From Planctomycetota bacterium (lineage in GTDB: Bacteria; Planctomycetota; B15-G4): a stretch of DNA of 64,000 nt. Below, one piece after another: positions 5,688 to 61,312 of this stretch. How positions within the stretch are numbered: the stretch's first letter is position 1; each line of letters begins with the position of its first letter. The notes beneath the pieces were generated by a model. That model ran no database searches and had not been told where the DNA came from. It saw only the letters and a list, made by a program, of their open reading frames with translations. The stretch is from contig JBBQUR010000008.1 of assembly GCA_038212275.1 (NCBI GenBank), positions 128,001 through 192,000 of the forward strand. The letters run 5' to 3'. A program made the position numbers and the translations under genes.

Positions 5688-6688
5688 CCGCGCCGCCCCT
5701 GCCGCGCTTCGCGTGCGCCGAGATACGCGGAGAGCCCGACGTCGAGCGGCGTGCCCGTGTCGAGCAGGTGGTAGTCCACGCCGCGCCGACCGCAGGCGGA
5801 GCGGACCTCCGCACGCCACTCCTGCAGCACCGCGAGGTAGCTCTCGCGCAGCGACGGCGCGTCCACCAGCAGGCGCGTGTCGTCCTCGAGCCCCTCGAAG
5901 CGCGTGAGCCTGTCGAAGGGAAAGTGCAGCTCGTCGGCGTGCATCACGTGCAGCACGACGGTGTCATGCCGCCGAGCGGCGAGGGCACCGAGGCCCGACA
6001 CCAGGTTCTCCGTGTCGCCGAAGAGATCGGAGATGAGCACCACGATGCCGGGGCGCGCGATGCGCTCGTTGAGCCGGGCCAGCACGGCGCCGAGATCGGT
6101 GACGCCATGCGGGCGGCGCTCCGCCAGTGCGGCGAGGATGGGCAGCAGGTGACCGGGCGACGTGGAAGCGGGCAGCACGCGGTCCAGTTCGTGATCGAAG
6201 AGCGCGAGCGCCGCGCCGTCACGCTCGCGCAGCACGAGGTGGCTGATGGCCGCCGCCGCCTGGCAGGCGTAGTCGTACTTGCTCGGTGCGGCGCCCGGGG
6301 CATCGGGCAGCGGCGCGCCGGCCGCATCGTCCGCGCGGTTCGGATACGCCATCGACGCGCTGCAGTCCACCACGATGGTGCACTCGAGATTGGTCTCTTC
6401 CTCGTAGCGCTTGATGGCCAGCCGGTCGTTGCGCGCGAAGGACTTCCAGTCGAGGTGGCGCAGGTCGTCGCCCTGCACGTAGGGGCGCCGTTCGACGAAC
6501 TCCACCGACACACCGCGGTGCGGGCTGCGATGGCGCCCGGAGAGGAAACCCTCCACGGTGCGCGTCGCCGAGAGCGACAGGTGCTTGAGGCGCTCGGCGA
6601 GCGCCGGATCGAGCGCGAGGCGCCGCCCGCCGGGCGCGCCTCCGACGGACACCCCCTCGTCCGCCGGGGACCGGAACTCTCCGGCCAC
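5684..6688 (-). CDS. DUF58 domain protein (MoxR-associated, vWA-like)
   Basis: GRHRSPHRGVSVEFVERRPYVQGDDLRHLDWK, IKRYEEETN, DCSASM, LISD. Probable GTG start at 6688, just after the moxR stop. Confidence 0.9.
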   Translation of the reverse strand: MAGEFRSPADEGVSVGGAPGGRRLALDPALAERLKHLSLSATRTVEGFLSGRHRSPHRGVSVEFVERRPYVQGDDLRHLDWKSFARNDRLAIKRYEEETNLECTIVVDCSASMAYPNRADDAAGAPLPDAPGAAPSKYDYACQAAAAISHLVLRERDGAALALFDHELDRVLPASTSPGHLLPILAALAERRPHGVTDLGAVLARLNERIARPGIVVLISDLFGDTENLVSGLGALAARRHDTVVLHVMHADELHFPFDRLTRFEGLEDDTRLLVDAPSLRESYLAVLQEWRAEVRSACGRRGVDYHLLDTGTPLDVGLSAYLGAREARQGRRG

Positions 6689-6693
6689 GTCGC

Positions 6694-7746
<1,053 letters not shown>

Positions 7747-7842
7747 GGCTGGCAACTCCCGGGCGGGCAGGTCGGTGGAGCGATCGGACTCTCTGGCGGA
7801 CGGGCAACGGGCCGGCCGACGGCAGCGTTGGAACGGCGCGAC

Positions 7843-22391: not shown

Positions 22392-24044
22392 GTGCGCAGC
22401 CTGAAGATCATTTTCGTCAGCCTGAACAACACGATCTTCGCGGATGGCTCGCGGATCCTGTCTGCGGCGCTGCGCAAGCAGGGGCACGACGTGAACTTCG
22501 TGTGCCTCACCCAGGACGGCGTGAACCTGTACGGCGAGCCGGTGCTCAAGCAGTTCTCCGACCTCATCACGGAGAAGCGCCCGGCGCTCGTGCTGTACAG
22601 CTTCCTCTCCGACAACTTCCTGCGCGCCAGCCGCGTGACGGAGCGCATCTACCGCGACCACCCCTCGGTCATGCAGGTCTGGGGCGGCGTGCACTGCACC
22701 ATCGCCCCCGAGGAAGCCATCAAGCACGTCAAGGTGCTCTGCCAGGGCGAGGGCGACGAGGCGCTGCCCGAGTTCGTGGAGAAGGTCGCCAACGGCGAGG
22801 ACTACACCGACGTCGCCAACTTCTGGTTTCGCGACGAGCAGGGCGTCATCAAGCACAACGAGATGCGCCCGCTCATGCTGGATCTCGACCGGATGCCGTG
22901 GCCCGACTATGAGATCGAGAGCCACTACATCCTGGATGAGGGCACGCTCAAGCCGATGACGGTGGCGCTGCTCGAGAAGTACCACAACAACGCGCCGCTG
23001 GGCTTCCCCACGTATCCGGTGCTGTCGTCGCGCGGCTGCGCCTTCCGCTGCAGCTTCTGCTACAACGCGACCTACAAGCAGATCTTCGCCGGGCAGAAGT
23101 CCGTGCGCTTCCGCAGCCTGCCCGACGTCGTCGCCGAGCTGCGGCACATGAAGGATCGCTTCCCCTTCTTCCGCTCCTTCTTCTTCAGCGACGACGACTT
23201 CTTCCTGCGCAGCAAGAAGGCGCTCGAGGAGTTCTCGACGCTCAGCAGGGAGAAGATCCCGGACCTGCTCTTCGACGCCTGGTGGGGCTCCACCGCCACG
23301 CCCGCCTCGCTGAGCAAGGACAAGCTCGACCTGATGTACGACATCGGGTTCCGCGTGGTCGCCGTCGGCGTGCAGACCGGCAGCGAGGAGTTCAACAAGC
23401 GCATCTACGACCGCGACTTCCCGAACCAGCTCTTCATCGACAAGATGTGGATGATCGACAAGCACTACCACCGCAAGATGGTGGTCACGCTCGACTTCAT
23501 CGTGGACTGCCCCTACGAGTCCGAGTTCGACACGCTGGAGACGGTGCGCCTCATCGAAAAGCTGCCCAACTGGGTGAGCCTGTCTGTGTTCACCTTCGTC
23601 TTCTACCCCGGCAGCCCGCTCTACAAGCGTGCGCTGGAAGCCGGCGAGATCACGGCCGATCCGGAGCTCTACAACTCCAAGAGCTTCCAGCCCTTCGAGC
23701 ACAAGGGGCACAGCTACGTCGGGCACCTGCTCATCGCGATGGGCTGCGCCAACTACGTGACGCCGCGCTGGGCCAAGCGGCTGCTCATCAGCGCGCCGGC
23801 GCTCTGGCTCGGCCGCCACACGCCGCAGTGGATTCTCGACCTGTGGGACTGGAAGCCCATCTACAACAAGCTCTGGGGCTACAACCAGAGTTGCGCCCTC
23901 GGCATGGGCCGGCCCAAGAAGCGCTGGTGGCAGTTCTGGAACTTCTTCCGCGGCGCCGAGGACAGGCTTCCCGCTCAGGAAGCGGCCGTCATGCAGGACC
24001 GCGGCCAGATCGACCAGTGGACCAAGGGCTCGCTCACGGGCTGA
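22392..24044 (+). CDS. Cobalamin-binding radical SAM enzyme (class B-like)
   Basis: N-terminal B12-binding-like region (WGGVHCT..GEGDE), RGCAFRCSFC (CxxxCxxC), DDDF, GVQTGS, YPGSPLY. Confidence 0.92.
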   Translation: MRSLKIIFVSLNNTIFADGSRILSAALRKQGHDVNFVCLTQDGVNLYGEPVLKQFSDLITEKRPALVLYSFLSDNFLRASRVTERIYRDHPSVMQVWGGVHCTIAPEEAIKHVKVLCQGEGDEALPEFVEKVANGEDYTDVANFWFRDEQGVIKHNEMRPLMLDLDRMPWPDYEIESHYILDEGTLKPMTVALLEKYHNNAPLGFPTYPVLSSRGCAFRCSFCYNATYKQIFAGQKSVRFRSLPDVVAELRHMKDRFPFFRSFFFSDDDFFLRSKKALEEFSTLSREKIPDLLFDAWWGSTATPASLSKDKLDLMYDIGFRVVAVGVQTGSEEFNKRIYDRDFPNQLFIDKMWMIDKHYHRKMVVTLDFIVDCPYESEFDTLETVRLIEKLPNWVSLSVFTFVFYPGSPLYKRALEAGEITADPELYNSKSFQPFEHKGHSYVGHLLIAMGCANYVTPRWAKRLLISAPALWLGRHTPQWILDLWDWKPIYNKLWGYNQSCALGMGRPKKRWWQFWNFFRGAEDRLPAQEAAVMQDRGQIDQWTKGSLTG

Positions 24045-25368
24045 GCGGCTCGGCCTCCGCGCGCTTTCGGCCGTAGAAGAAGAAACCCGCGGCCAGCGCG
24101 AGGCGCGTGGCGTCATCCAGCGGATGCAGCGTGGCGGGCGGCACGCCGCGCGAGAGCGAGGCCAGCAATTCGCCCACGGGCGTGGCGTCGAGCTCTCGGC
24201 GCAGCGCGTCGTCGGGCAGGCCCTCGCGCAGCAGGCGCAGGATCCAGCCGAACGCCACCCACGGCTCCTGGTGCGGACCGATGCCGCCGTCCAGCTTGTC
24301 GAAGCCGGACAGCAGGCGGTCCAGCCCGGTGCGCGTGAAGTTGTGATAGTGATCCGGGAAGGCATGGAAGGGCGCGATGAACGGCGCGTCGACGCGGATC
24401 ACGCCGGCCGACTTGAGCACGCGGTGCAGTTCCGACGCCACGGCCCACGGGTCGGGAACGTGCTCGAGCACGGACTCGCAGATCGCGGCGTCGAAGGCCT
24501 CGTCCGCGAAGGGCAGCGCCGCCGCGCTGGCCACGATGTCCACGTTGGGAAAGCGCAGGATCTCCAGGTTGACGACGTGCGGCAGGTTGTCCGCCGGCTG
24601 CCCGCAGCCGCAGTCCAGCACCCAGCCGTCGCGGTGGCCATCCATGAGGGCCAGCGACTGCCGCGAGTAGCTGTTCGAAGAGATCTCGCCGGGCGGCGGC
24701 TCGCCGTCGGCCGCCGGATCGCGCAACAGGATGGGCGTGCCGGAGCGGATCGCGTAGTGCTCGCCGCAGGCGGTGCACGTCAGCGCGTCGCTTGATGCTG
24801 CGAGCGGCGCTCGGGCCGCGCAGCGCACGCAGCGCAGCAACGGCAACAGGCGCCTCCACTTCGGGACGGGCGCCTTGGAAAACTGAGCCTCGCCCGCCGG
24901 GGCTGGCAGGACTGCCACCCCGCCAACGGACGTGTCCTGCGCCAGCCGCGCCGGATCGCCGTGCGGCGTGGCGCGCGGCAGCCGGTGCTGCAGCGCCAGC
25001 GGAGCCCGCGCGAGATCCGTGCCCAGCACCGTCATGGCCCCGCTGTCGCGATCGAGAATGACCACGCAGCTGTCGCCGGAGAGCAGCGCCAGGGCCTTCC
25101 CTTCCACCACGGACACGACGGGCACGAACACCGGCTGGCGGGAGTCGGCGCCCTGCCGCACCAGGTCGATCTCCGCGACGGCGATCGGATCTGGCAGAGC
25201 CGACAGCGCGTCGAAGGCCGCCGAGAGCCGTCCCAAGTCGCTCGCACCCGCCACCGACACGCGCACCGGCGCGCCCCGCCAGCGCGCCTCGATGAGATCG
25301 CCCCGCCGCGCGATGACGTGTGCGCCGTGGTGGCGCAGCAGGTCCAGCAGGTCAGCCTCGCTCGGCAT
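24034..25368 (-). CDS. Multidomain methyltransferase: unknown N-terminal domain + Trm112-like zinc knuckle + class I MTase
   Basis: LRCVRC..LTCTACGEHYAIRSGTPIL, VLDCGCG, LPFADEAFD, VLEHVPDP, P.H.FPDHY. Confidence 0.85.
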   Translation of the reverse strand: MPSEADLLDLLRHHGAHVIARRGDLIEARWRGAPVRVSVAGASDLGRLSAAFDALSALPDPIAVAEIDLVRQGADSRQPVFVPVVSVVEGKALALLSGDSCVVILDRDSGAMTVLGTDLARAPLALQHRLPRATPHGDPARLAQDTSVGGVAVLPAPAGEAQFSKAPVPKWRRLLPLLRCVRCAARAPLAASSDALTCTACGEHYAIRSGTPILLRDPAADGEPPPGEISSNSYSRQSLALMDGHRDGWVLDCGCGQPADNLPHVVNLEILRFPNVDIVASAAALPFADEAFDAAICESVLEHVPDPWAVASELHRVLKSAGVIRVDAPFIAPFHAFPDHYHNFTRTGLDRLLSGFDKLDGGIGPHQEPWVAFGWILRLLREGLPDDALRRELDATPVGELLASLSRGVPPATLHPLDDATRLALAAGFFFYGRKRAEAEPLSP

Positions 25369-25484
25369 GGGCGCTCCGGGTCGGTGAGCGCGGGATCCTA
25401 ACCCGGGCACGGGCTGCAGCGCCCCGTCACGCGCCCGCGCCATGCATCAGCGCCGGCGCAATACGGAGGCGACTCTCCGGCCCG

Positions 25485-26876
25485 TCACGGCAGGAAGTCG
25501 AGCCGCACCGCGTTGGAAAAGCCCACGCCGCCGGGAAGGGAAGCATCCATGAGCACGCCCTGCACGAACAGGGACGCCGGCCCGCCGCCGCCGGGGATGA
25601 GAAGCACGAGGGTGCCCGTCGGACCGGTCGAGACGTTCGTCAGCAGCAGCAGCGGCAGCGGCACGAGCGTCCCGCCCTTGTAGGGCGTGGGCGTCGCGGA
25701 GATTCCGGCGAGCAGGAAGACCGTGCCGGCCTCGGGCCCGCCCCACAGCGTGAGGTTCGCGCTCGTGCCCGACGACAGGTCGCCGCCGCAAGCCGAGAGC
25801 TTCGACGGGCCTGGCCCCGAGAAGCCGAGGTCCGCCTGGCAGACGCCGAGCGGCGTGAGCAGCACCGCACCAGTGACGCCGGTGACGGTGTTCGTCGCGA
25901 TGGCCGCGAGCTGGCGCGCGTCGTTGATGTCCATCGAGAAGCTCTGCACGATCGACCATGGTCCGGCGCCCGGCGCGACGAGCTGCTGCGCGTTGAACTC
26001 GCCCAGCCCCTCGAGATGCAGGATGTTCGTGGTGAGGAAGGCCTGGTAGATCACGTCGCCGAGGTCGTTGATGTCGTAGGCGTTGGCCAGCGGGCTGCAC
26101 GGACTCAGCAGTTGCCAGCCGTAGTCGTCCATGTGGCGCGCGGCCTGGTAGACGCAATTCGTGCTCGTCGCCAGGACGGCGGTGCCCGCGATCTGACCCA
26201 GCTCGTTGATGGAGTAGCCGGTGGTGGCCTGGTAGTTGATCGGACCCGGCGGCGTGCCGAACGTGTCCAGCGTCATGGTGTCCAGGTCCAGGCGCCTGCA
26301 CTGCTTGTCGAGCATCTGGCGCTGGTCGTTGATCGCCTGCGGATCGAAGACGCCCAGCGGATTGAGGTCGAGCACGCCGCCCGGCGCGCTGAAGAGCACG
26401 GCGTAACGGAACATGCCGCTGTTCGACCAGCCGACGATGTCGCCCACGTTGTTGAGCGCCGTGGCGATGCTGCCGGAGTGGCCCGGCAGCTTGCCCAGTT
26501 CGTGCACCGTGTAGCCGCCCATGCCGTCGGGCAGCCACTGCGCCGCGCGCCCGAAGAACTCCGGCGACAGGAACGTGGACACGGCGCCCACGATCACGCC
26601 CTGCTCGTTGATGTCCAGCGCCCAGCTGCTCTTGTCACCCGCGGGCAGCGGAAGCAGCGTGAGCGCCGAGGTTGCGGAGGCCACCCAGCCGCGCGTGTTT
26701 CCCGCCACGCTCAGCTGCCCCACCACCACGCCGGCCTCGCTCAGCGCCGTGATGCTCTGGGCCGCGCCCAGGAAGGTGACGGAGCACGACGGCGGCGATT
26801 GCGCGCCGAGACTCAGCGACAGCGCCGGAAGGCAGACTCCGAGCAGGGCAAGACGCATGCAGCGGGAACTGGACAT
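25485..26876 (-). CDS. Secreted HAF-like extracellular repeat protein with shared C-terminal domain
   Basis: Signal peptide and repeated A..IN..G.IVG units (DINEQGVIVG, ALNNVGDIVG, SINELGQIAG). Ends ..KGGTLVP..Q..D..G.GFSNAVRLDFLP. Confidence 0.85.
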   Translation of the reverse strand: MSSSRCMRLALLGVCLPALSLSLGAQSPPSCSVTFLGAAQSITALSEAGVVVGQLSVAGNTRGWVASATSALTLLPLPAGDKSSWALDINEQGVIVGAVSTFLSPEFFGRAAQWLPDGMGGYTVHELGKLPGHSGSIATALNNVGDIVGWSNSGMFRYAVLFSAPGGVLDLNPLGVFDPQAINDQRQMLDKQCRRLDLDTMTLDTFGTPPGPINYQATTGYSINELGQIAGTAVLATSTNCVYQAARHMDDYGWQLLSPCSPLANAYDINDLGDVIYQAFLTTNILHLEGLGEFNAQQLVAPGAGPWSIVQSFSMDINDARQLAAIATNTVTGVTGAVLLTPLGVCQADLGFSGPGPSKLSACGGDLSSGTSANLTLWGGPEAGTVFLLAGISATPTPYKGGTLVPLPLLLLTNVSTGPTGTLVLLIPGGGGPASLFVQGVLMDASLPGGVGFSNAVRLDFLP

Positions 26877-26958
26877 GAGAGAGGTCTCCGGAAGGTGATG
26901 ATCAGGGAGAGCGAATGAGCTGTGCGAGGTGCGGGAGGCACGTGCAACGAGACACTAG

Positions 26959-26973
26959 GCAATCGGTGCGCCG
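26959..26973 (-). promoter_or_regulatory. Putative sigma54 -24/-12 promoter (CGGCGC-ACCGA-TTGC)
   Basis: Exact GG-N10-GC spacing with TTGC, about 83 nt upstream of ATG 26876. Deviates from TGGCAC at two positions. Confidence 0.55.
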
Positions 26974-27024
26974 CGCGGTGCCGGCCTTGCTGCCGACACC
27001 GCGCGGAATCCTCCGCACCGCGAC

Positions 27025-30000
27025 TCACGGGACCAGGGCGCGCAGGCCGCCGCTCGCCGCGAGGCCGAACGGCGCGCTGGCGTCGCTGATCCACGTCTGG
27101 AACCACGCCTGCGTCCCGGCGGGCAGGCCGGCCGGCCAGGTGCCGACAAGCAGCCAGCTGCCGCTCGCATCGGTGCCGATGCCGGAAAGCACGAGGTCCG
27201 GGTTCGGGACCAGCACCCCGCCCTTGAACGGGGCGTTCAGCGCGGAGAGCCCGATGATGAGCGACGTCGGCGCCCGTGCGGCGGCGCTGCTCAACTGCAG
27301 TTGCACCGGCGCGTTGGCCGCGAGGCTGCCCTCACCCACGAGCACGGGCAGGCCACCGGCGCCCGCGACGCCGCCACCGAGCTGCGTCCATGTCTGCGCA
27401 CCCGGCGTGACGGCGAAGGCGCCGCTCGTCGAGGACGTGTTCTGGAAGCGGAGGTCGCGAGCGATGACGCGCACGCGCACCGACTCGATGCCCGAGCTGC
27501 CCGGCAGGATCCACGCGTAGGACGACGCGGCGGCGGGGAGATTGTCGGCCACGACCTGCCACGTGCGGCCGTTGTCGTACGAGGCGTGAATCGCGAAGGA
27601 GCGCAGCGCCTCGTCGTCGGAGGCGGACCAGAGGACCGGCACGGTGCTCCCGCCCGCGAAGGACTGGCCGGCCTGCGGCGACGTGAGCTGCACCACCGGC
27701 GGCGCATCGCCAAGCAGCGCGGGATCCGGGCGGATGGAGAACTCGGGCGTGAACTCCCAGCGATCGCGACCGCCCGCGCCGGCGCTGTAGCGCAGGCCGA
27801 CCCGCGCCGTGTCCGTGCTGACGCCCGGCGCCTTCAAGCCGAGCGGCATGCAGGTGATCGCCGTCGAGGCGCCGCCGAGCGAGAAGAGCTGTTCGTCGCT
27901 GTCGAGGAACAGGAAGGCATCGACGAGCCCCGACGAGCCGGGCAGCACCGTCCAGCAGAGGTCCACGTTCTGGCCGGGACGCAGCGTGCCGGCGATGGGT
28001 TGCGGCAACACGCCCTTGTTGCCGAAGTCCACGTAGGGCGTGTTGAACTGGATCTCGTCCCAGCCTTCCTGGCCGGCGGCGTCGGTCGCGACGACGCGCA
28101 GCACCGAGGCGCCGTTGTTCGACGAGGGCGGCGCCTGCGGCACGGTGATCTCGACCGAGCGCGCGCCGGCCGGGATGCCGTCCAGCAGCAAGGCAAGGGC
28201 GGGATTCTCGCTGTGCGGCGAGTAGAGCACGCGGAAGCCGGCGATGCCGTCATCGTCCTGCGCGTCCCACGTGAGCAGCAGCTTGCGGCCTTCCTCGAGC
28301 AGGAACGAATGCTCGTGCAGGCGCACGATCGGCGCGTGGTTGTTCGCATTCGGCGCCGACGTGAGGAAGGGCACGATCACGGCGTTGCCCGTGACCAACT
28401 CGCCGGTGCCGCCCGGGTTGGAGGCCGCCATCGGGCCGCTCGGTGCGTTCCACCAGTTGTATTTCCCGGACTCGATGTTGAGCGGCGCCAGCACCTCGAA
28501 GGCGATGCCGTTGGCTGCGAAGGTGTTGGGGTTCGTGAGGCCATCGAGGTCGGCATGACCGGCCGCGAAGCCTCCCGTCGCCGGCAGTCCTGCCGACGTC
28601 TGCACGCCCGAGGCGTTACCGAGGAACGCGCAGGAGCGCGCCACGATGTTGCCGAAGCTGTAGGAATTCGCGCCGATCGCATTGCCCTCCAGCAGGCACG
28701 ACTCGAGGCGCACCACGGTCTCGTCCGCCCCGAAGGCCCGCAGCCCGCCGCGCGCGATGCAGTTCTCCAGCTTGGGCCGCCGCGAGCTGCGGAAGGAAAT
28801 CGTCTGCCAGGCCTGTCCCGGGTTGAGGCGCTCGAAGGTGATGGGCGCGTCGGGCAGGCCTTCGGCGATCACTGTGCCGCCGGCGTAGCTGTGGATCTTC
28901 GCGTCCGGCCCGAGCTTCAGCGTGACGCCGGGCTCGATGGTCAGCTCGCCCTCGTTCACGTCGCCCGAGGTGTCGGCGTCGATCCGGTACGGCAGGCCGG
29001 CATTCGCGAAGGTGACCCGGCCATGCACGTTGCCGAGACCGCCGTGCACGTAGTTGTTCGCGTTGCCGCCCGTCGGCAGCGTGCTGCCCGGCGCGATGCC
29101 GCCGCCGGTGAGGTGCACTGGATACAGGTTGTTGGCGATGGTGTTGTTCGCGCCGAAGAAGTGGTCGAAGCCGGACAGCACGAAGGGCGCGTCGCCGGCG
29201 ACGTTGTGCGCGCTGACGTGGTCGATGAAGAGCGGCTGCCCGGCCTTGTATCGCGTCGACTTCAGCACGGTGCCGTTGAGGTTCAGGCCGTCCACCAGCA
29301 CGTAGCTGTCCTGCGCGCTGATCGACGGGCCGGTCACGGTCGTGTTGCGGATGACCAGCGTGCCCGAGGCGATGAAGATGTCGCCATCCCCGCTGAAGGT
29401 CGAGTGGTCGATGGAGATGGTCTTGGTCTGCGTGCCGTAGATCACGTCCTGGTTGTTCACGAAGACCGGGAGGTCCGACACCACGTGGTCGAGGCGCACC
29501 GTGGCGCCTGGCGCCACCTCGATGCCCTTGCCGAACGGGCCGCCGGCGCCGCCGGTGAGCGCGACGGGTGAGGCCGCACTGCCGAGGAACTCGCCGAGAC
29601 CCTCGACGCGCACGTTGCCGGTGGCCGCGACGTCAAGCGCCGAGCCCGCCTCGAAGCGCAGCGTGCCCGGCACGTACAGCGTCGCGCCGGTCTTCACCTG
29701 CACGCTCACGCCGCCGTCCACGATGAGCGTCCCGCCCGACACGACCGCCGTGTCGGAGGCCAGCACCACCGGGCTGAGCGCGCTCGTCCAGTGCACCGTC
29801 TGGCCGGCGACCGGCATCGGCGGGCCGGGCGGAGGCGACTGGTTCACGGTCAGAGCATCGATGCCGAGGTACGAGGCGAAGCAGCCAAAATTGCACGCGT
29901 TGTCCACGAAGTTGCGCAGCGCGAGCCTCCCGGTGCCAGGCACGGTGACCGACACCACGGTCCAACCGGTGAGCTGGACGGGGTTCAGGTCGGCAAGGAG

Positions 30001-30480
30001 CGTGGTGAAGTCGCCCACGGCGGCGCCGCCCGAGCCGGTCGAGGTGCCGCCGCCGGGCGCGTAGCGCACCTGCAGCGTGTCCACGTTGCTCGAATCGACG
30101 CGGCGCACGAAGAAGGTCAGTCGGTCGCCCGCCTTCTGGTTCGCGATCGCGGGGAGGATGGCCCACTGGCTCACGTCTCCGCCGAGAAACGCCGTCGACT
30201 CGCTGCCGACGGAGAGGTATCCGGCGCCGCTCTGTGACGGGAACAGGCTGTTCGTGCCGGTGTGCCAGGTCCCCGTCGCGACGGGAGCGCTCTGGTTGCG
30301 GAAGATCCAGCCTTGCGCAATCAGGTTCACAGGGCCGTCGGTGCCGGCCTGCACGGGGCCGTTGTTGTCGAAGGCCTGGCTGAAGCTGGCCTGGGCAATC
30401 GCCGCGCGGGCCGTAGCCAGCGACAAGCACAGCGTGATCGCACTCACGACGCCGCGGGACATCTTTCGATTCGCAAACAT
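27025..30480 (-). CDS. Large secreted adhesin-like protein (cleaved-adhesin-like domain, parallel beta-helix, Ig-like modules, shared C-terminal domain)
   Basis: Signal peptide. GWIFRNQS..SQWAILP..DTLQVR N-terminal domain, beta-helix repeats (PITF..W.TI.F, NWWNAPSGP), two P.V.L..W.A.DD Ig-like repeats, C-terminal domain. Confidence 0.85.
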   Translation of the reverse strand: MFANRKMSRGVVSAITLCLSLATARAAIAQASFSQAFDNNGPVQAGTDGPVNLIAQGWIFRNQSAPVATGTWHTGTNSLFPSQSGAGYLSVGSESTAFLGGDVSQWAILPAIANQKAGDRLTFFVRRVDSSNVDTLQVRYAPGGGTSTGSGGAAVGDFTTLLADLNPVQLTGWTVVSVTVPGTGRLALRNFVDNACNFGCFASYLGIDALTVNQSPPPGPPMPVAGQTVHWTSALSPVVLASDTAVVSGGTLIVDGGVSVQVKTGATLYVPGTLRFEAGSALDVAATGNVRVEGLGEFLGSAASPVALTGGAGGPFGKGIEVAPGATVRLDHVVSDLPVFVNNQDVIYGTQTKTISIDHSTFSGDGDIFIASGTLVIRNTTVTGPSISAQDSYVLVDGLNLNGTVLKSTRYKAGQPLFIDHVSAHNVAGDAPFVLSGFDHFFGANNTIANNLYPVHLTGGGIAPGSTLPTGGNANNYVHGGLGNVHGRVTFANAGLPYRIDADTSGDVNEGELTIEPGVTLKLGPDAKIHSYAGGTVIAEGLPDAPITFERLNPGQAWQTISFRSSRRPKLENCIARGGLRAFGADETVVRLESCLLEGNAIGANSYSFGNIVARSCAFLGNASGVQTSAGLPATGGFAAGHADLDGLTNPNTFAANGIAFEVLAPLNIESGKYNWWNAPSGPMAASNPGGTGELVTGNAVIVPFLTSAPNANNHAPIVRLHEHSFLLEEGRKLLLTWDAQDDDGIAGFRVLYSPHSENPALALLLDGIPAGARSVEITVPQAPPSSNNGASVLRVVATDAAGQEGWDEIQFNTPYVDFGNKGVLPQPIAGTLRPGQNVDLCWTVLPGSSGLVDAFLFLDSDEQLFSLGGASTAITCMPLGLKAPGVSTDTARVGLRYSAGAGGRDRWEFTPEFSIRPDPALLGDAPPVVQLTSPQAGQSFAGGSTVPVLWSASDDEALRSFAIHASYDNGRTWQVVADNLPAAASSYAWILPGSSGIESVRVRVIARDLRFQNTSSTSGAFAVTPGAQTWTQLGGGVAGAGGLPVLVGEGSLAANAPVQLQLSSAAARAPTSLIIGLSALNAPFKGGVLVPNPDLVLSGIGTDASGSWLLVGTWPAGLPAGTQAWFQTWISDASAPFGLAASGGLRALVP

Positions 30481-30538
30481 GAGGACTCTCCGTGGACGCC
30501 GTGAGCCGGATCAAATCGAATCCGGCGGCAGCCACAGG

Positions 30539-30553
30539 GCAAGCCGCGTGCCA
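30539..30553 (-). promoter_or_regulatory. Sigma54 -24/-12 promoter (TGGCAC-GCGGC-TTGC)
   Basis: Matches consensus TGGCACG-N4-TTGC, about 59 nt upstream of ATG 30480. Confidence 0.8.
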
Positions 30554-30706
30554 GCCTCCGTCCGCCACGATCGAGGCGAGGAACGCCCCGTTCAGCGCCC
30601 GGCGCGATCCACGCACCAGACACGGCGTCCACGATCCGGACAGGCGACTGGACATCGCGGACGGCGAGCGCGGACGCAATCGGTGAGACGCGAGCGCTGG
30701 GGAGGC

Positions 30707-30721
30707 TGGCACGGTGCTTGC
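30707..30721 (+). promoter_or_regulatory. Sigma54 -24/-12 promoter (TGGCAC-GGTGC-TTGC)
   Basis: Matches consensus TGGCACG-N4-TTGC, about 77 nt upstream of ATG 30798. Confidence 0.8.
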
Positions 30722-30797
30722 GCTTGCCTCCGCACCGGACCGCAGGCGTCCGCGCCTTGCTGCCCCGCACTTTCCCGATGACCCAAGGAAGCCCGCC

Positions 30798-33461
30798 ATG
30801 TCACGTCATCGTTCCGCGCTCGTGCTTGCCGCCCTCGCCGCGATCGCCGCCGCACCAGGCGCCCGCGCGCAATACCAGGACTTCGCCAGTTGGACGGGCA
30901 TCGATGTCGGCACGCCGGCCGACATGCAGTTCGCGCAGGAGTTCGTGCGCGCGGACTTCGACGGCGATGGCCACGCCGACCTCGCCGTCGTGAGCTGGGG
31001 TCTCTCGCAGCACAAGCTCGCCATCCTGAAGAACCTCGGCGACGAGCGCTTCGGCCCCGCCACCTTCTATCCGCTGCTCAAGGGAAGCCAGGCCCTGGCC
31101 GTCGCGGACATCGACGGCGATGGCGACCTGGACCTCGGCGTCACCGAGGGCGAGAGCACCTCCAGCGGCACGACGGTGGCCATCTTCCGCAACGCCGGCG
31201 ACGCCAGCTTCACGCTCAGCCAGCGCATCACCGTGCCCAAGGGTCCGCTCGGCATCGCCGCGTGCGACTACGACGGCGACGGCGACAAGGACTTCGCCGT
31301 GGCCATCTACGGCGTCTCGGCCTCCGGCACGTCGGTGAAGCTCCTCGTCAACAACGGCGCGGGCACCTACTCCAGCGGCGCGTCCATCGCCGTGTCCGCC
31401 GCACCGGCCTGCATCGCGGCCGCGGACTTCAACGGCGACGGCCGCGACGACCTCGCGGTGGGCCACGACAAGTTCGACGTCATCGACATCCTGCTGGGCG
31501 GCGGCGCGACCTTCGCGGCTCCGATCACCTTCAACGTGTCGGCCGGCATGGCGGGCGGCTCGAGTCTCTTCTCGTGCATCAACGTCGTGGACCTCGACCG
31601 CGACGGCGACCTCGACATCGCCTTCAGCGACAACAGTCACCAGAAATTCATCCCCTTCCTTCGCGGCCTCGTCACGACCATCCTCAACCAGGGCGGCGGC
31701 TCCTTCGCGCAGGGCCCCGACATCGTGTTGCGCCCGGGCGCCAACGGCTTCACCGACATGGCCTTCGCCGACCTGAACGGCGACGGCTGGCCGGACGTGC
31801 TGGGCACGGACCACATGGACTGGGACTTCGCGCTCTCCGACGGCGCGGGCTCCTACGTGCAGCCGCTCGTCGCCAACTACGGATTCCTCGGCACCGACGA
31901 GCCCACCGCGATCGACGCCTTCGATGCCGACGGTGACGGCGACCTCGACGCGCTCGTGCTCGGCAGCCACTCCGTCGCTCTGACGGTGCACCGCTTCCAG
32001 GACGGCGTGCCGCTCGAAGGCGCCGTCTATGCAGGCCCGGACGGTGATCTCGACGCGGCCGACATCGACGGTGACGGCGACATCGACCTCGTGGGCGGCG
32101 GTGGCGGTCCGATCCACGTGCTGCGCAATCTCGGCGACGGCAGCTTCGGCGCTGATGTCACCTATCCCAGCGGCGCCTTCGGCGGCCCCAAGGCCGTCAA
32201 GCTGCGCGATCTGAACGGCGACGGCTTCCCGGACCTCGTCATCGTGACGCTGGGCGGCTTCAACACGAAGCTCAACCTCGGCGACGGCAACTTCGGCACG
32301 CTCGTGCAGTGGAATCTGCCGAGCTGCGGCCAGGATGACGTGGATCTCGTGGACCTCGACGAGGACGGCGACCTCGATGTCGTCGTCGCGGAATCGGCGG
32401 GCTGCCCGAACGTCCCCTTCCCTCGCGTGTGGATCATCGAGAGCAACGGCGACGGCACCTTCGTGCAGCCGGCCGGCCCCGCGTTCAGCCCCACCGGCCT
32501 CACGCCCACGCTCACGCACGCCGACCTGAACCTCGACGGGCACCAGGACCTCGTGCTCGCGCAGAACAGCTGGCTCGAGATCTACCTCGGCACCGGTTCG
32601 CTCTCGGTGTTCGCGCCGAAGATCACCGCCACGGCGGCGTGGGCGCCGCACGGCATCGTCGCCGCGGACTTCAACGGCGACGGCCTCCCCGACCTGGCCT
32701 CGTGCAACTGGGGCGGCGTGGGCAACGACTTCATCAACGAGACGATGACCGTGCTGCTCGGCAACGGCGACGGCAGCTTCACGCCGCCGGCGGTGCTGCC
32801 ATCCGGCGCCTCGTGGGACCTCGGCTCGTCCACCGGCATCCAGGCCGGCGACATCGACCGCGACGGCGACATCGACCTGCTCGTCGCGAACTTCGACTCG
32901 CACGACGTGTCGCTCTTCCGCAATGCAGGCGACGGCAGCTTCCTGCCGCAGACGCGCGTCGGCGGCGCTCTGTACCTCTCCGACGCGGTGCTCGCCGACT
33001 TCACCGGCGACGGCATCGACGACCTCGCGCTCGCCGGCCAGTCGGCCATCATCGCCGTGCCTGGCGCCATCGTGATCAAAGGCCTGGCCAACGATCCGTG
33101 GCTGCCCGTCGGCGCGGCGCTCGCCGGCAGCGACGGCCTGCCGCACCTGGACCTCGACGGGGCGCTGGTTCAGGGCGAGACGATCACGCTCCGACTCGTG
33201 AAGGCGAAGCCCGGTGCGGCCGGCTTCCACATCCTCGGTCTTTCGCAGCTCAACGCGGCGCTGTCCGGCGGCGTGCTCGTGCCCCAGCCGGACATCCTGC
33301 TGCCCTTCGTGGCCGACGCGTCCGGCGAGAACACCTTCTCGGCGCCTCTGCCGATCACGCTTCCCGCCGGCACGCAGCTCGTGCTCCAGAGCTGGCTCGT
33401 GGATGCCGCAGGCCCCGCCGGTCGCGCGGCCTCCCACGGCGTGCACGCCACGGCACCGTGA
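30798..33461 (+). CDS. Secreted FG-GAP/VCBS repeat protein (probably two beta-propellers) with shared C-terminal domain
   Basis: AAGGAA upstream of ATG 30798, signal peptide (..ARA-Q), about 14 D(F/L/I)(D/N)GDG..D repeats. Confidence 0.92.
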   Translation: MSRHRSALVLAALAAIAAAPGARAQYQDFASWTGIDVGTPADMQFAQEFVRADFDGDGHADLAVVSWGLSQHKLAILKNLGDERFGPATFYPLLKGSQALAVADIDGDGDLDLGVTEGESTSSGTTVAIFRNAGDASFTLSQRITVPKGPLGIAACDYDGDGDKDFAVAIYGVSASGTSVKLLVNNGAGTYSSGASIAVSAAPACIAAADFNGDGRDDLAVGHDKFDVIDILLGGGATFAAPITFNVSAGMAGGSSLFSCINVVDLDRDGDLDIAFSDNSHQKFIPFLRGLVTTILNQGGGSFAQGPDIVLRPGANGFTDMAFADLNGDGWPDVLGTDHMDWDFALSDGAGSYVQPLVANYGFLGTDEPTAIDAFDADGDGDLDALVLGSHSVALTVHRFQDGVPLEGAVYAGPDGDLDAADIDGDGDIDLVGGGGGPIHVLRNLGDGSFGADVTYPSGAFGGPKAVKLRDLNGDGFPDLVIVTLGGFNTKLNLGDGNFGTLVQWNLPSCGQDDVDLVDLDEDGDLDVVVAESAGCPNVPFPRVWIIESNGDGTFVQPAGPAFSPTGLTPTLTHADLNLDGHQDLVLAQNSWLEIYLGTGSLSVFAPKITATAAWAPHGIVAADFNGDGLPDLASCNWGGVGNDFINETMTVLLGNGDGSFTPPAVLPSGASWDLGSSTGIQAGDIDRDGDIDLLVANFDSHDVSLFRNAGDGSFLPQTRVGGALYLSDAVLADFTGDGIDDLALAGQSAIIAVPGAIVIKGLANDPWLPVGAALAGSDGLPHLDLDGALVQGETITLRLVKAKPGAAGFHILGLSQLNAALSGGVLVPQPDILLPFVADASGENTFSAPLPITLPAGTQLVLQSWLVDAAGPAGRAASHGVHATAP

Positions 33462-34046: not shown

Positions 34047-36731
34047 ATGACCAACGCCGGGGAGACGTGCGCATCGACGGGCCCGCTGGACGGCGAGCGC
34101 TCGCGGCTGCCCGTCGGCGCGTGCCTGCTGCTGGGCCTCGCGATCGCGCTGCTCAACACGACGCTGCCCGACGCCGTGCTGCTCCCCGCGGTGGATCGCC
34201 TGCCGCCGCGGCATCTCGGGCTCGCGATCGACGGCGTCCTGCTCTCGCTCGGCGCGTGGGCGATGTCGCGCTCGGCGAGCGGGCTGGGACGCGGCCGGCT
34301 GATGCTCCTCGGCGCGGCCAGCCTCGTTGGTTCCCTCACCAGCGCGACCCTGCTGCCGCCGCTGCACGACTGGCTCGCCTCGGGCCTGCGCGGCGAAGGC
34401 TTCCTGCCGTATTACCCGCTGGTGGTGCTGGCCTCCGCGGCGGCCGCCGCGCCCGCCGCGCTGCCCCTGGGCGGGCTGCTCGCCGTGGCGCTGGGGACGG
34501 GCCGACGCGGCGCGCTTGCCGCGCTGCTGGCCGGCCTCGCCGGCGGCTTCATGCTCGCCCCGTGGAGCGCGGACGTGCTGCTCGGCGCCACCCGCACGCT
34601 GCATGTCACGGCGCTCGTCGCCGCCAGTGCGGCGCTGCTCTTCGCCGAGCGCACGCCGAGACCGGTGCGCGGCGGCCGGCTCATGGCGGGCGGCGGGGCC
34701 GCCGCGCTCGCGCTCGGCGCGGCGCTGGTCGTCGCCGTGCGCCTCGTGCAGCAGCAATCGGATCGCGGACCTCTCGTCGGACCGGCGCTCGCCGCGCTGC
34801 TGTGCCTCGCCGCGATGGCGGGTCTGCTGCTGCCCGCGCCGCGCTCGCTGCCGCTGTTCATCGCAGCCGTCGCGGCGGGGCTGCCGGCGCTCTGCCCCGC
34901 GCAGACGTGGATTCCACGCGAGCTGGTGCGCGACACCGGCGCCGAGCTCTTCACGCTGTCGCTCATGGCGCTTCCTGCCGGGCTGCTGCTGGGTGGACTG
35001 GCGCAGCAGGCGCTCGGTGCCGAAGGCCGGCGACGAGCCGGCGCGAGCACCACGGCCTTCGCGACGCAGGCCGCGCGCAGCTCGTCGCACGGAGCCGCTG
35101 CCGGTCGCGTGCCGCTCACGTGGTTGCCGGCGCTGCTGCTGCTGCCGGCGCCCTTCACCACGCTCGTGCTGCTGCCGCACGTCGGGGCGCGGGCTGCAGC
35201 CGTGCTTGCGGCCGCGCTCGTCGTGCTGGTGCTGGCGCGGCAGTGGCGCCAGCAACTCGCGGGGCTCCTCACCCTGGCCATCGTCGCCGCCCTGTCGCTG
35301 GGAGGCGTCGGCCCGCCGCCGCCGCCGGAGGCCGTGCGCGCCGACGACGTGGTGCATCTGCCGGACGGCGATGCCGCGCTCGTGCGCGATCCGGAGACCG
35401 GTCGGCGCCTGCTGGCGATCGACGGCCACGCGGCCTTCGGACGTTCGGCCGGCCAGGAGCGACGCTTCGCGCTGCTGCCGCTGCTGCTGTGGGGCCATCC
35501 GCAACGCGTGCTCGTCATCGCGTCGGGCTTCGGCGAAACGGCCAGTGCCGCGTGGAGCACGGGCCTGAACAAGCTGCACTGGTTGCGGCCCTTTGCGCAC
35601 CCGGAGCGCTGGAACGACACGCCGTGGCCCGGTGAAGACCCGCCCACCGTCGGCAGCGAGCGGCAGTTTCTCGCGGTGCCGCGCGAACGCTACGACGCGA
35701 TCATCATGGCCCCTGACGTGCGCGTGGCCAGCCGCGGAGCGCTGGTCGGCTCGTCGGAGTTCTACGCCCTCGCGCAGGAGCGGCTCGCGACGGGAGGGCT
35801 GCTCTGCCAGTGGTGGGATCTGGCCGACACGGACATCTCGGACCTCAAGGCCGTCATCGCCTCGGCCACCGAGGTCTTCCCCTTCTGCTCGCTGATCATG
35901 GACCACCCGCGGACGCGACGCGCCTGCGTCGGGCTGCTGCTCAGCGGCGTCCCGCTGAGCGTGGAACCCTCGACGATCGACATGGTGCTCGCGGAGAACG
36001 CCGTGCTGGCTGCCGACATCCACGGCATCGGCCTCGACGGTCTGAGCATGGCGGCCCTGGTCAGCGCCGATCGCGGGCTGCTCGAACTCATGGCGCCTGC
36101 CGAGAGCGCCATCCACGACGACCGGCCCGTGCTCGGCGTGCAGGGTGCGCTGCGCAGCGAGGGTGGCCGGCAGCGCCTGCTCACCGGGCTCACCACGCTG
36201 GCGCTGCAGCGGCGCGACCCGATGCCGTGGATCCTGGTGCCGCCGGACAATCGGTACGATGTCTCGCTGCTGGTGCGCGACCGTTTCCGCGCCTGGCAGC
36301 ACCTCTTCGGTGGCGCACAGCGCGTGGTGGCGGAGGCCGGGCCCGCGGGCGCGCCCTTCGAGCGCGAGTCGCCGGGCAGCGGACCCGACAGCGAGGCGGC
36401 CAGCTTCCTCCAGGCGCTCGCCCCGATGCCCGACAGCCACGAACTGGTGGAACTCGTGCTCGGCCGCGCCAGCTTTCTGCAGCAGCAGGGCCGGCCCGAC
36501 GAAGCCGACACGTGGTTGCGCCAGGCCATCGCCATCGACGCCGGCAATCCCGCGCTGCACTTCGCGCTGGGCAGGCTGCAGGAGCGTCGCGGCATGCGCG
36601 AGGACGCCGCGGTGCACTACACCTCGGTGCTGACGATCGACCCGGGCCACGGCCCCGCGCGCGACGCCCTCGACGCGCTGCGTGCCGCGGGCATCGCGCT
36701 GCCCGAGGGCGCGCCGCTCAAGGACCGCTGA
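34047..36731 (+). CDS. Polytopic membrane protein fused to a degenerate spermidine-synthase-like domain and C-terminal TPR
   Basis: Many TM helices, then RLLAIDG, PQRVLVIASGFGETA, RYDAII, EFYALAQERLATGGLLCQW, VFP, and TPR-like helices at the end. Confidence 0.8.
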   Translation: MTNAGETCASTGPLDGERSRLPVGACLLLGLAIALLNTTLPDAVLLPAVDRLPPRHLGLAIDGVLLSLGAWAMSRSASGLGRGRLMLLGAASLVGSLTSATLLPPLHDWLASGLRGEGFLPYYPLVVLASAAAAAPAALPLGGLLAVALGTGRRGALAALLAGLAGGFMLAPWSADVLLGATRTLHVTALVAASAALLFAERTPRPVRGGRLMAGGGAAALALGAALVVAVRLVQQQSDRGPLVGPALAALLCLAAMAGLLLPAPRSLPLFIAAVAAGLPALCPAQTWIPRELVRDTGAELFTLSLMALPAGLLLGGLAQQALGAEGRRRAGASTTAFATQAARSSSHGAAAGRVPLTWLPALLLLPAPFTTLVLLPHVGARAAAVLAAALVVLVLARQWRQQLAGLLTLAIVAALSLGGVGPPPPPEAVRADDVVHLPDGDAALVRDPETGRRLLAIDGHAAFGRSAGQERRFALLPLLLWGHPQRVLVIASGFGETASAAWSTGLNKLHWLRPFAHPERWNDTPWPGEDPPTVGSERQFLAVPRERYDAIIMAPDVRVASRGALVGSSEFYALAQERLATGGLLCQWWDLADTDISDLKAVIASATEVFPFCSLIMDHPRTRRACVGLLLSGVPLSVEPSTIDMVLAENAVLAADIHGIGLDGLSMAALVSADRGLLELMAPAESAIHDDRPVLGVQGALRSEGGRQRLLTGLTTLALQRRDPMPWILVPPDNRYDVSLLVRDRFRAWQHLFGGAQRVVAEAGPAGAPFERESPGSGPDSEAASFLQALAPMPDSHELVELVLGRASFLQQQGRPDEADTWLRQAIAIDAGNPALHFALGRLQERRGMREDAAVHYTSVLTIDPGHGPARDALDALRAAGIALPEGAPLKDR

Positions 36732-37677
36732 CGGGAATCCCGAGGACGCGCCACGTGTCGCCCTCGGGCGCCGTGGTGCGCGCGAGCAGACCGGCCAGCC
36801 ACCAGTCCGTCGTGCGCTGCTCGGCATCGTCGCGCACCTGCCCCCACAGCGGGCCGACGTAGTACCAGCCGTCGCTCGCATCCTGGATGTTCATGTAGAG
36901 CGGGAAGATCCATTCGCGCACGAAGGGATCGTCGCCGCGACCGCGCCAGCTGCGCAGCGGCGAGAGCATCTCGCTGCCGAGGAAGGTGAAGGCGCGCACC
37001 TCGCGCCGGTCGCCCACGTCGTCGTAGCCGAAGAGCGTGATGATGTTGAAGAGGTTGGCAACCTCGATGCGGCGGCTGCTGCTGCGCCCGAGAGCGGGCA
37101 CGGTCTCGCCGTCCGCGGGGCGGCCCACCTCCACCTTGAGCAGCGTGGCCAGGCCGAACAGCGTGAGGAAGACCACGTCGTCGGCGGGCCCGTCGTGACG
37201 CCAGTCGTAGAGCAGGATGATGCCGGAGCGGTGGAAGTCGGAGATCTTGCTGCGCTGGTTGTAGAAGAGCGGCAGCAGCACGTAGTCCGTGCGCATCTCC
37301 GGGTTGTCCTGGTATCCGTAGAGCAGGGACCAGAAGCGCGTCTCCTCGTACGCACTGTGACGGCTGTACCAGAGCGGGAAGAGCAGCGTGTTCTCGCTGT
37401 ACGGCGGGTTGTCGTCGTGCCACCAGAACGGCAGCAGCCGCGAGTGCGTGTGCGCGCCCTCGTGCTCCTGGCCCACGAGCCAGACCAGCGCGTTCCATTC
37501 GCCGCTCGTGCCGTCGGACGATTCGCTGCTGGTGAACAGCGGCGGCAGGTAGACGCGGCTCTCGCGCACCTGGCCCGGGCCGTCCAGCACCGGCGTGCGA
37601 CAGGCCGGCAGCAGCACGCCGGCCGCGGCGAGCAGCACGGCGGTCCGGAGGTGGCTGGCGGCGAGCCGAAGGCGCAT
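36718..37677 (-). CDS. Hypothetical lipoprotein with aromatic beta-rich repeats
   Basis: Lipobox LPAC. Repeats LPPLF, LLPFWW, LFPLWY, LLPLFY, IFPLYM, VGPLWG. Confidence 0.7.
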   Translation of the reverse strand: MRLRLAASHLRTAVLLAAAGVLLPACRTPVLDGPGQVRESRVYLPPLFTSSESSDGTSGEWNALVWLVGQEHEGAHTHSRLLPFWWHDDNPPYSENTLLFPLWYSRHSAYEETRFWSLLYGYQDNPEMRTDYVLLPLFYNQRSKISDFHRSGIILLYDWRHDGPADDVVFLTLFGLATLLKVEVGRPADGETVPALGRSSSRRIEVANLFNIITLFGYDDVGDRREVRAFTFLGSEMLSPLRSWRGRGDDPFVREWIFPLYMNIQDASDGWYYVGPLWGQVRDDAEQRTTDWWLAGLLARTTAPEGDTWRVLGIPVSGP

Positions 37678-37831
37678 GGCGGGGTTCTCGCGAAAGGGTG
37701 CGGATCATAGCGGCCGCGCCCGCCTTCCGGCCCGGGCGGAATTCCTGCGGGGATTCACCGGATTCTCCTGCCGCGCACTCAAGGCCCCGGGCCGGAAGGG
37801 CCGAAGAGGGTTGCGAGCAGGAGGCAATCCC

Positions 37832-38377
37832 ATGAATCCGAACAGCAGCAAGACACCCGCGCGTCGTGGCAAGGGCCCCGGTTACCTCGAGGCCCTCGTG
37901 GCGATGTCCATCCTCGTGAGCCTTTCAGGCGTGCTCATGCCGGCCGTCGGCGAGCAGGTCGGCCAGGCACGCGTCGATCAGGCCTACGCCGACATGATCG
38001 ACATCGCGAAGGGCATCGCGCACTACTCGCGCGACACGCTGTTCCTCCCCACCGGCGTGCAGGGCCGCACCAACCTGGCCTGGATGTACGGTCCGGGCGA
38101 GATTCCGTCGGGCCACCAATTCGGCTCGGGCGGCGAGGCGCGTCCGCTGGAGGACGTGCTCTCCAACAACTCGATGGGCGGCGCCGCGTGGGCCGGCCCG
38201 TACGGCGGGACGCTCACGCCCGATCCCTGGGGCCACGCCTACCTTGTGAACGTGGACGGCTGGATCAACGCTCGCGAGCACGCGGTCGTGCTGTCCGCCG
38301 GCCCCGACGGCATTGCGGAGACGCTGCCGCTCTCGGCCTCCCCCGCCGGCGACGACCTGCTCTACGTGATGGACTGA
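37832..38377 (+). CDS. GspG-like pseudopilin (T2SS protein G domain)
   Basis: AGGAGG RBS, basic leader, hydrophobic helix with Glu at +5, WAGPY..DPWGHAY..LSAGPDG..DDL. Confidence 0.8.
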   Translation: MNPNSSKTPARRGKGPGYLEALVAMSILVSLSGVLMPAVGEQVGQARVDQAYADMIDIAKGIAHYSRDTLFLPTGVQGRTNLAWMYGPGEIPSGHQFGSGGEARPLEDVLSNNSMGGAAWAGPYGGTLTPDPWGHAYLVNVDGWINAREHAVVLSAGPDGIAETLPLSASPAGDDLLYVMD

Positions 38378-61222: not shown

Positions 61223-61312
61223 GGGCGACAGGCTAACCGGCTCGCAGCGCACTTGCACCCGGCGCGGCGTCCGCGCTTGCACCACGACATCCACCGCACC
61301 ACACTGCGGCGC

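Follow-up and report, generated by a model that had tools for sequence, protein, structure and literature searches.

Dockerins are calcium-binding helical modules of about 60-70 aa; in other Planctomycetota, those of type I (PF00404) and of the GC type (NF041540) close off signal-peptide proteins singly, right at the C-terminus, in tens to hundreds of copies per genome. The sorting domains of type IX secretion (T9SS; type A, TIGR04183/PF18962, and type B, TIGR04131), known from Bacteroidota and the FCB group, are terminal beta-sandwiches on many varied Sec-exported proteins, and PEP-CTERM/exosortase signals are found on HAF and choice-of-anchor proteins of other bacteria. Planctomycetota abound as degraders in sediments, soils and sludge, and to our knowledge little has been described of the way in which their enzymes and adhesins reach the cell surface. 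We analyzed a stretch of 64,000 nt (hereafter the window; G+C content 72%) from contig JBBQUR010000008.1 of the Planctomycetota bacterium assembly GCA_038212275.1, in which three secreted proteins, A, B and C, share a C-terminal domain (CTD) of about 120 residues. The CTD belongs to a very large and undescribed domain family, and sequence comparison supports a sorting or anchoring slot for it, which is filled by dockerins or T9SS tails on homologous proteins in other lineages.

A domain family on unrelated secreted proteins

The three genes and their CTDs are located in the window as follows.

25485..26876, minus strand: gene A, 463 aa, signal peptide, HAF-repeat-like body and CTD
25488..25841, minus strand: CTD of protein A, a Cys-containing sub-variant with Pro at its end (hidden Markov model envelope 372-486 of the stop-to-stop open reading frame)
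27025..30480, minus strand: gene B, 1151 aa, signal peptide, choice-of-anchor J, long beta-rich body, immunoglobulin (Ig)-like domain and CTD
27028..27390, minus strand: CTD of protein B, the canonical form, whose sequence was used for modelling (envelope 1041-1160)
30798..33461, plus strand: gene C, signal peptide, 12 FG-GAP repeats and CTD
33099..33458, plus strand: CTD of protein C (envelope 805-923)

The start of gene C was taken as the ATG at 30798, which precedes the signal peptide and is most likely the true one; the longest open reading frame (ORF) begins upstream, at GTG 30714. All three proteins have a Sec-type signal peptide at the N-terminus, and their bodies are unrelated by Pfam and NCBIfam families. 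The body of protein A matched TIGR02913 (HAF repeat) with 22.4 bits, just below the cut-off of 22.65, and its match to DUF3466 was also weak. In protein B, choice-of-anchor J (NF038128, E = 2.7e-19) was identified together with an Ig-like match that is weak, and FG-GAP_3 was found in 12 stretches of protein C (E = 2.2e-82). In BLASTP alignments, the CTDs of B and C share 44% identity over 121 aa (E = 3e-25), those of A and B 33% (E = 3e-9) and those of A and C 29% (E = 3e-5). The ORFs, signal peptides and alignments agree with the first-pass annotation of this DNA, which had noticed three secreted proteins with unrelated bodies and homologous ends of about 120 aa.

The CTD is a real, very large and undescribed domain family. 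A profile search against 1.84 billion protein cluster representatives obtained 14,054 matches at E ≤ 1e-3 and 1,157 at E ≤ 1e-30. When the three CTDs were compared with Pfam and NCBIfam, zero matches were returned even at E ≤ 10, and a profile of 62 tails found nothing significant among the PDB sequences (best E = 0.063). A protein atlas search with the CTD returned only unnamed Planctomycetota clusters, and the public names of 47 CTD relatives are either 'hypothetical protein' or a description of the passenger only. No description of the CTD was found in literature on planctomycete C-terminal domains and sorting signals, on type IX secretion in Phycisphaerae and on the GC-type dockerin; the accessible part of PMC11131199, in which Phycisphaerae and type IX secretion are both named, does not mention it.

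An AlphaFold2 model of the CTD of protein B, built from a 62-row alignment, is all-beta with 11 strands (pLDDT 97.3, pTM 0.90). Foldseek found no PDB entry below E = 0.01 for this model, and its weak rows include glucan-binding and LPMO-type (lytic polysaccharide monooxygenase) domains. With an exhaustive structural aligner, the best match was a macroglobulin (MG) domain of alpha2-macroglobulin (6tav_A, Z 9.5, rmsd 2.6 over 99 residues, 16% identity), and numerous Ig-like domains came next at Z 6-8, a range that the aligner's own note counts as background. The CTD region of PorU was also among the matches (Z 6.7, rank 27). Since the best score belongs to a macroglobulin domain and the Ig-like matches lie in the background range, the modelled fold is a generic Ig-like beta-sandwich; the MG domain, although the best structural match, shows no sequence relation to the CTD and occurs in another context. 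These fold searches and the sequence searches gave no specific match, and the earlier remark that the domain was not recognised as a named family has held. The near-invariant columns of the CTD include a PFKGG-x-LVP hairpin and one Gln and one Asp near the end, and its conserved aromatic and polar residues are Trp, Phe, Lys, Gln, Asp and Asn. Neither a low-complexity linker nor a conserved motif was found at the junction between body and CTD. A two-copy complex prediction scored 0.00, which counts neither for nor against self-association.

To count the CTD in the host genome (4.65 Mb, 40 contigs, 91% complete), a hidden Markov model (HMM) was seeded with the tails of A, B and C and refined by iterative searches of the six-frame ORFs (domain E ≤ 1e-5). 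The CTD was detected in 138 ORFs, about 4% of the approximately 3,200 predicted genes, and ends no more than 8 residues from the stop in 133 of them. By a simple heuristic rule, 120 of the 138 carriers have a signal-peptide-like start, and several of the other 18 show one by eye. The first-pass annotation had proposed such a search of the genome and its relatives, and the hits indeed lie mostly on signal-peptide proteins and at the C-terminus. It had also remarked that all the tails end in Pro, which is correct for A, B and C and applies genome-wide to only 87 of 132 C-terminal copies.

Passengers were scanned against Pfam for the 62 carriers that lie within 20 genomic regions, and a family was found in 35 and none in 27. 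The carrier families include FG-GAP (15), DUF642 (3), sulfatase (2), DUF7948/SBBP (2), Kelch/TIG (2) and PMT_2, together with matrixin (M10), subtilase (S8), LTD with endonuclease/phosphatase, CHRD, NHL/SGL propellers, PD40, sortilin/BNR and TSP_C. Identity between CTDs on unrelated bodies has a median of 37.6% and a maximum of 66.9%, and its retention across such bodies suggests that selection acts on the CTD itself. CTD pairs on related bodies are more similar (median 42.3%), which indicates that part of the spread was whole-gene duplication. A recent local duplication limited to these three genes, which had been considered at the outset, does not agree with the genome-wide and clade-wide occurrence of the CTD; the CTDs of A, B and C are not mutually nearest, and the best CTD partners of A and B (about 51% identity) lie on other contigs. 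By these comparisons the CTD is an old, genome-wide module.

Beyond the host, the CTD was found in all 41 genomes of the host order, with 6 to at least 107 matches each, and in some CTD-positive relatives the number is well above 150. Across 301 Planctomycetota genomes sampled evenly from the phylum, it is present in 64, mostly in an all-or-none pattern by family (8/8, 6/6, 8/8 and 6/6 versus 0/16, 0/16, 0/11 and 0/11). The terminal position is preserved: at 78 loci of other metagenome-assembled genomes (MAGs), 109 of 113 copies are C-terminal, and in the best 150 of the 14,054 database matches the CTD invariably ends no more than 7 residues from the C-terminus, with one copy per protein. Named records with close CTD copies are MAGs labelled Planctomycetota, Phycisphaerales or Phycisphaeraceae. 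One MAG with at least 149 CTD matches (L039 and other loci) is labelled Pseudohongiellaceae, a gammaproteobacterial family name; for those CTD-bearing contigs, the label or the binning looks wrong.

Dockerins and T9SS tails in place of the CTD on homologous passengers

Homologues of the body of protein A, with about 50% identity over about 95% of the queried part, differ in tail type between groups. Among the matches listed, 120 such homologues comprise 59 with the CTD, 25 with a precomputed FlgD_ig and 2 with Dockerin_1. Twelve were scanned, of which 3 have, right at the C-terminal end, a match above the cut-off of TIGR04183 (T9SS type A), one of them being named a T9SS type A sorting domain protein by NCBI, and 2 pass the cut-off of the GC-type dockerin (NF041540). 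For the body of protein B, just 2 of 52 homologues carry the CTD; 17 of the 33 scanned have a terminal GC-type dockerin (10 above the cut-off), and the six closest, at 57-69% identity, have dockerin-like tails. The same passengers thus carry different C-terminal modules in different lineages. Such tail exchange is what 'choice-of-anchor' denotes, as explained in a preprint (bioRxiv 10.1101/2023.03.06.531300). The T9SS type A domains or dockerins at the ends of homologous passengers in other lineages give independent support to a sorting or anchoring slot for the CTD.

A homologue of the B body was also found in the cultured Engelhardtia mirabilis (P0364), with a tail of about 110 aa that bears a faint likeness to the CTD (single-sequence E = 0.026). 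This tail could be a distant CTD variant, which would give a culturable organism.

High-copy use of dockerins and presence of the CTD are mutually exclusive across the sampled families. At least 7 Dockerin_1 matches were found in 34 of the 301 sampled genomes, from 16 families, and the CTD in none of the 34; dockerin matches do occur in 23 CTD-positive genomes, at 1-5 per genome. The GC-type dockerin reaches high copy in CTD-negative families only, and the host genome gave no match to Dockerin_1, the GC-type dockerin or exosortase (PF09721). The CTD resembles dockerins in position, in presence on signal-peptide proteins, in copy number and in the A and B passengers with which both are combined. 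However, the CTD has no match to dockerin models, and it is about 120 aa long and all-beta.

The likeness to T9SS CTDs extends from the terminal beta-sandwich and the variety of Sec-exported carriers to the same slot of type A domains on A-body homologues, but no HMM or profile similarity was found, and the CTD is longer (about 120 aa versus a 72-position model). Comparison of 62 CTDs with 25 T9SS-tailed HAF homologues by hhalign gave a probability of 0.2%. PEP-CTERM signals differ further: the CTD has no PEP motif, transmembrane helix or basic tail and ends in a beta-strand according to sequence and model. The absence of a transmembrane helix and basic tail, by which the domain had at first been distinguished from PEP-CTERM, can be read in the CTD sequences and is accompanied by the lack of an exosortase match in the host. 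An anticorrelation between exosortase and the CTD was considered and rejected; PF09721 has matches in 26 of the 64 genomes with the CTD and in 104 of the 237 without it, and the two are unrelated.

To the initial description of the domain, the present analysis adds this exchange of the slot with dockerins and T9SS tails, the exclusion of dockerins, and two unusual placements, namely an N-terminal family and a fusion to a GT-C enzyme.

Docking, export and other explanations

These placements are as follows.

G000 C7:48390-49715 in the host genome, and L036, L045, L068 and L075 in four other MAGs: signal peptide, then CTD, then a metallo-beta-lactamase-like domain
G000 C20:72769-75138 (L004:17562-19931) in the host genome: polytopic inner-membrane protein of the GT-C type (PMT_2) with a C-terminal CTD behind a Gly-Ala tether of about 35 residues

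The enzyme part of the N-terminal family, called metallo-beta-lactamase-like from an HxHxDH-type motif read from the sequence rather than from a Pfam scan, is 55-69% identical across the five genomes. Additionally, two giant secreted proteins that lie next to each other (1301 and about 1670 aa, with Kelch, TIG, GSDH and malectin; G000 C4:144061-155149, L020) carry a Cys-variant CTD right behind the signal peptide (domain E = 1.6e-18 and 3.8e-15), and one copy in the host genome is internal. Strict C-terminality, which the first-pass annotation had put forward for checking, is consequently not supported: the CTD is terminal in 133 of 138 ORFs and in all of the best 150 database matches, but a conserved N-terminal family and the internal copy depart from this. 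Matches to the GT-C part of the fusion were obtained in 17 of the 301 genomes, of which 16 are CTD-positive, but in none of the 8 genomes from the host's own family; being sporadic, it was rejected as a core component of a CTD system and taken as accessory. The genome encodes a second large GT-C enzyme in the window, a 1379-aa protein at 59069-63205 with a PMT_2 match at residues 804-942 and no CTD.

The best-supported reading, to which we give about an even chance, is that the CTD docks or anchors Sec-exported proteins in the manner of a dockerin. Passengers are exported by Sec, as their signal peptides show, and the CTD is a self-contained, non-catalytic Ig-like beta-sandwich of about 120 residues that would serve as a common handle. 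It would then most likely bind one shared partner in the envelope or at the cell surface, either a receptor protein or an envelope glycan, so that diverse passengers (FG-GAP and HAF adhesin-like proteins, sulfatases, proteases and nucleases) may be held at one place. The CTD, its fold class, copy number, place in the protein, taxonomic spread and exchange with known anchor modules are observed here, and the binding, its target and the final location of the passengers are what we infer; on this reading the CTD would be the functional counterpart, without kinship, of the dockerins and GC-type dockerins in other Planctomycetota families. In favour of docking are the copy number and terminal position of the CTD, the variety of its exported passengers, the slot shared with known anchors, the distribution complementary to dockerins and the conservation across unrelated bodies. 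Four lines argue for docking rather than export: T9SS genes were not found, the hhalign probability is 0.2%, the CTD also occurs away from the C-terminus, and it is fused to a GT-C enzyme. An outer-membrane export signal would be useless on an inner-membrane enzyme where a binding module would be useful, and a C-terminal position that is preferred but not obligatory fits a binding module.

That the CTD is instead an export signal, read in the periplasm by an outer-membrane translocon, needed for passage and possibly later cleaved in the manner of the T9SS, seems unlikely to us. Such a signal would agree with the extreme C-terminal position in 133 of 138 genome copies and all of the best 150 database matches, with the single copy per signal-peptide protein, and with a cargo range (adhesin-like repeats, proteases, sulfatases and a nuclease) that resembles T9SS cargo; on HAF passengers elsewhere this slot is taken by a T9SS type A domain, and the fold class is shared with T9SS CTDs, as the match to the CTD region of PorU illustrates. 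Either a system not known so far or a dedicated member of the many secretin-based systems could provide the translocon, and 8 secretin-family matches in the host genome are possible exits. However, membership in the T9SS was rejected. The PorV and PorU models (NF033710 and NF033707) have no match in the 91%-complete host genome, with controls positive only weakly, and neither have the SprA and GldM/PorM models (TIGR04189 and TIGR03517), whose blanks are weak because the controls were silent in all 14 genomes; no match to TIGR04183, PF18962, TIGR04131 or any Pfam family was obtained for the CTD. The N-terminal family, the internal copy and the polytopic inner-membrane carrier are ill-suited to a C-terminal translocation signal, the junction has no conserved motif that could be a cleavage site, and no translocon-like gene is enriched beside CTD genes. 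Where the first-pass annotation had suggested an export or surface-anchoring tag, passenger exchange speaks for an anchoring or sorting slot, while T9SS-like export finds no counterpart in the gene content or the hhalign comparison.

We regard two further explanations as improbable, the second more so than the first. A carbohydrate-binding or adhesion module directed to external polymers or particles rather than to the cell itself would be consistent with a beta-sandwich of the sort common among carbohydrate-binding modules (CBMs), with the weak glucan-binding and LPMO-type Foldseek rows, with the conserved aromatic and polar residues and with the non-obligatory position. Sulfatases are among the carriers, and the GT-C enzyme carries its CTD in the periplasm, as mycobacterial Emb and AftD glycosyltransferases likewise bear sugar-binding modules. 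But no CBM family is matched by sequence in Pfam or PDB, and most of the scanned carriers are not carbohydrate-active (15 of 35 annotated are FG-GAP proteins, besides HAF, CHRD, proteases and a nuclease, and sulfatases or similar enzymes are few). CBMs are seldom terminal only, seldom present as one copy per protein and seldom found on about 4% of a proteome, and the modules exchanged with the CTD on homologous passengers are anchors or sorting tags, not CBMs. Even less probable is a stable Ig-like end-cap or spacer with no common targeting role, serving folding or protease protection and spread by duplication in one clade. The generic Ig/macroglobulin-like fold (best Z 9.5) and the lack of a detected partner would suit it, as would the greater similarity of CTDs on related bodies (42.3% versus 37.6%) and the whole-gene duplication which this implies. 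Yet spacer Ig domains are usually internal and in tandem and the CTD is single and terminal; on homologous passengers, dockerins and T9SS tails take its place, families rich in dockerins lack it, and it keeps near-invariant surface-type residues across unrelated carriers.

Several observations weigh against docking. The extreme C-terminal bias (133 of 138) would be equally expected of an export signal; as a beta-sandwich, the fold is of a common type and offers no diagnostic site, and binding by the CTD is a prediction only. Just 16 CTD-positive genomes, and none of the 8 of the host family, encode the GT-C part of the fusion. The mutual exclusion of CTD and dockerins lies between clades, and its Fisher P-value of 2.4e-4 is overstated, as related genomes are not independent, so that it describes a clade-level replacement rather than a statistical law. 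Planctomycetota dockerins are themselves uncharacterised, and 'dockerin-like' transfers an inferred function; we know of no cohesin-like partner in this phylum for either dockerins or the CTD. Furthermore, no partner was found for the CTD. When the 3,233 predicted proteins were clustered all against all and the neighbours no more than 2 genes from a CTD gene were examined, only Ser/Thr kinases (12/36) and extracytoplasmic function (ECF) sigma factors (8/24) were weakly enriched over the background of 12%, and no translocon-like gene was. An outer-membrane-protein-like candidate partner (L100) was ruled out, being present in 60 of 301 genomes without relation to the CTD.

The kinase and ECF sigma factor genes close to CTD genes may have to do with how surface proteins are regulated. 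Outer-membrane candidates were chosen by a C-terminal aromatic signature, and most are ordinary (BamA/TamB, porins, a TonB receptor and DUF481); two others (L117 and L099) were rejected, with no pattern relative to the CTD in 5 genomes. A windowed self-comparison for tandem-repeat scaffolds flagged several non-CTD proteins with internal repeats. Three of these are very long, with units of about 1 kb, and we would guess that they are modular synthetases; two others have repeats of about 170-200 aa (C10:184258-187344 and C10:38751-41612).

Neighbouring genes and implications

The gene trio is surrounded by genes of other kinds. A B12-binding radical SAM gene (22392-24041, plus strand) lies in a stretch of lower G+C content (0.649 versus about 0.72), and adjoining it, directly upstream of the trio, is a gene for a 469-aa protein with a methyltransferase domain (24037-25443, minus strand). 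Convergent with gene C is the gene of an 894-aa protein (34047-36728) whose long N-terminal half is polytopic and which ends in TPR, its sole Pfam match, and 4 kb downstream of gene C stands a gene like that of type II secretion system protein G, a pseudopilin (37595-38374). At the start of the window, the region 1171-7755 encodes a MoxR-type AAA ATPase (6697-7755, minus strand), a BatA-domain protein (3477-5819, minus strand) and two large unannotated proteins, and looks like an aerotolerance-type (Bat/MoxR) cluster.

Recognizing the CTD would improve the annotation of thousands of 'hypothetical' proteins and would define a surface proteome for uncultured planctomycete lineages. That dockerins and T9SS tails replace the CTD on homologues of its passengers provides a concrete handle for the partner search. 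It is possible, though we hold it to be doubtful, that the CTD marks a new protein-display system of one large group of Planctomycetota families, in which a dedicated receptor or translocon would bring over 130 proteins per genome, roughly 4% of the proteome, to the surface, and which would have replaced in evolution the dockerin-type anchors of sister families. If the partner proves to be a new receptor or translocon, the CTD would belong to a new sorting system.

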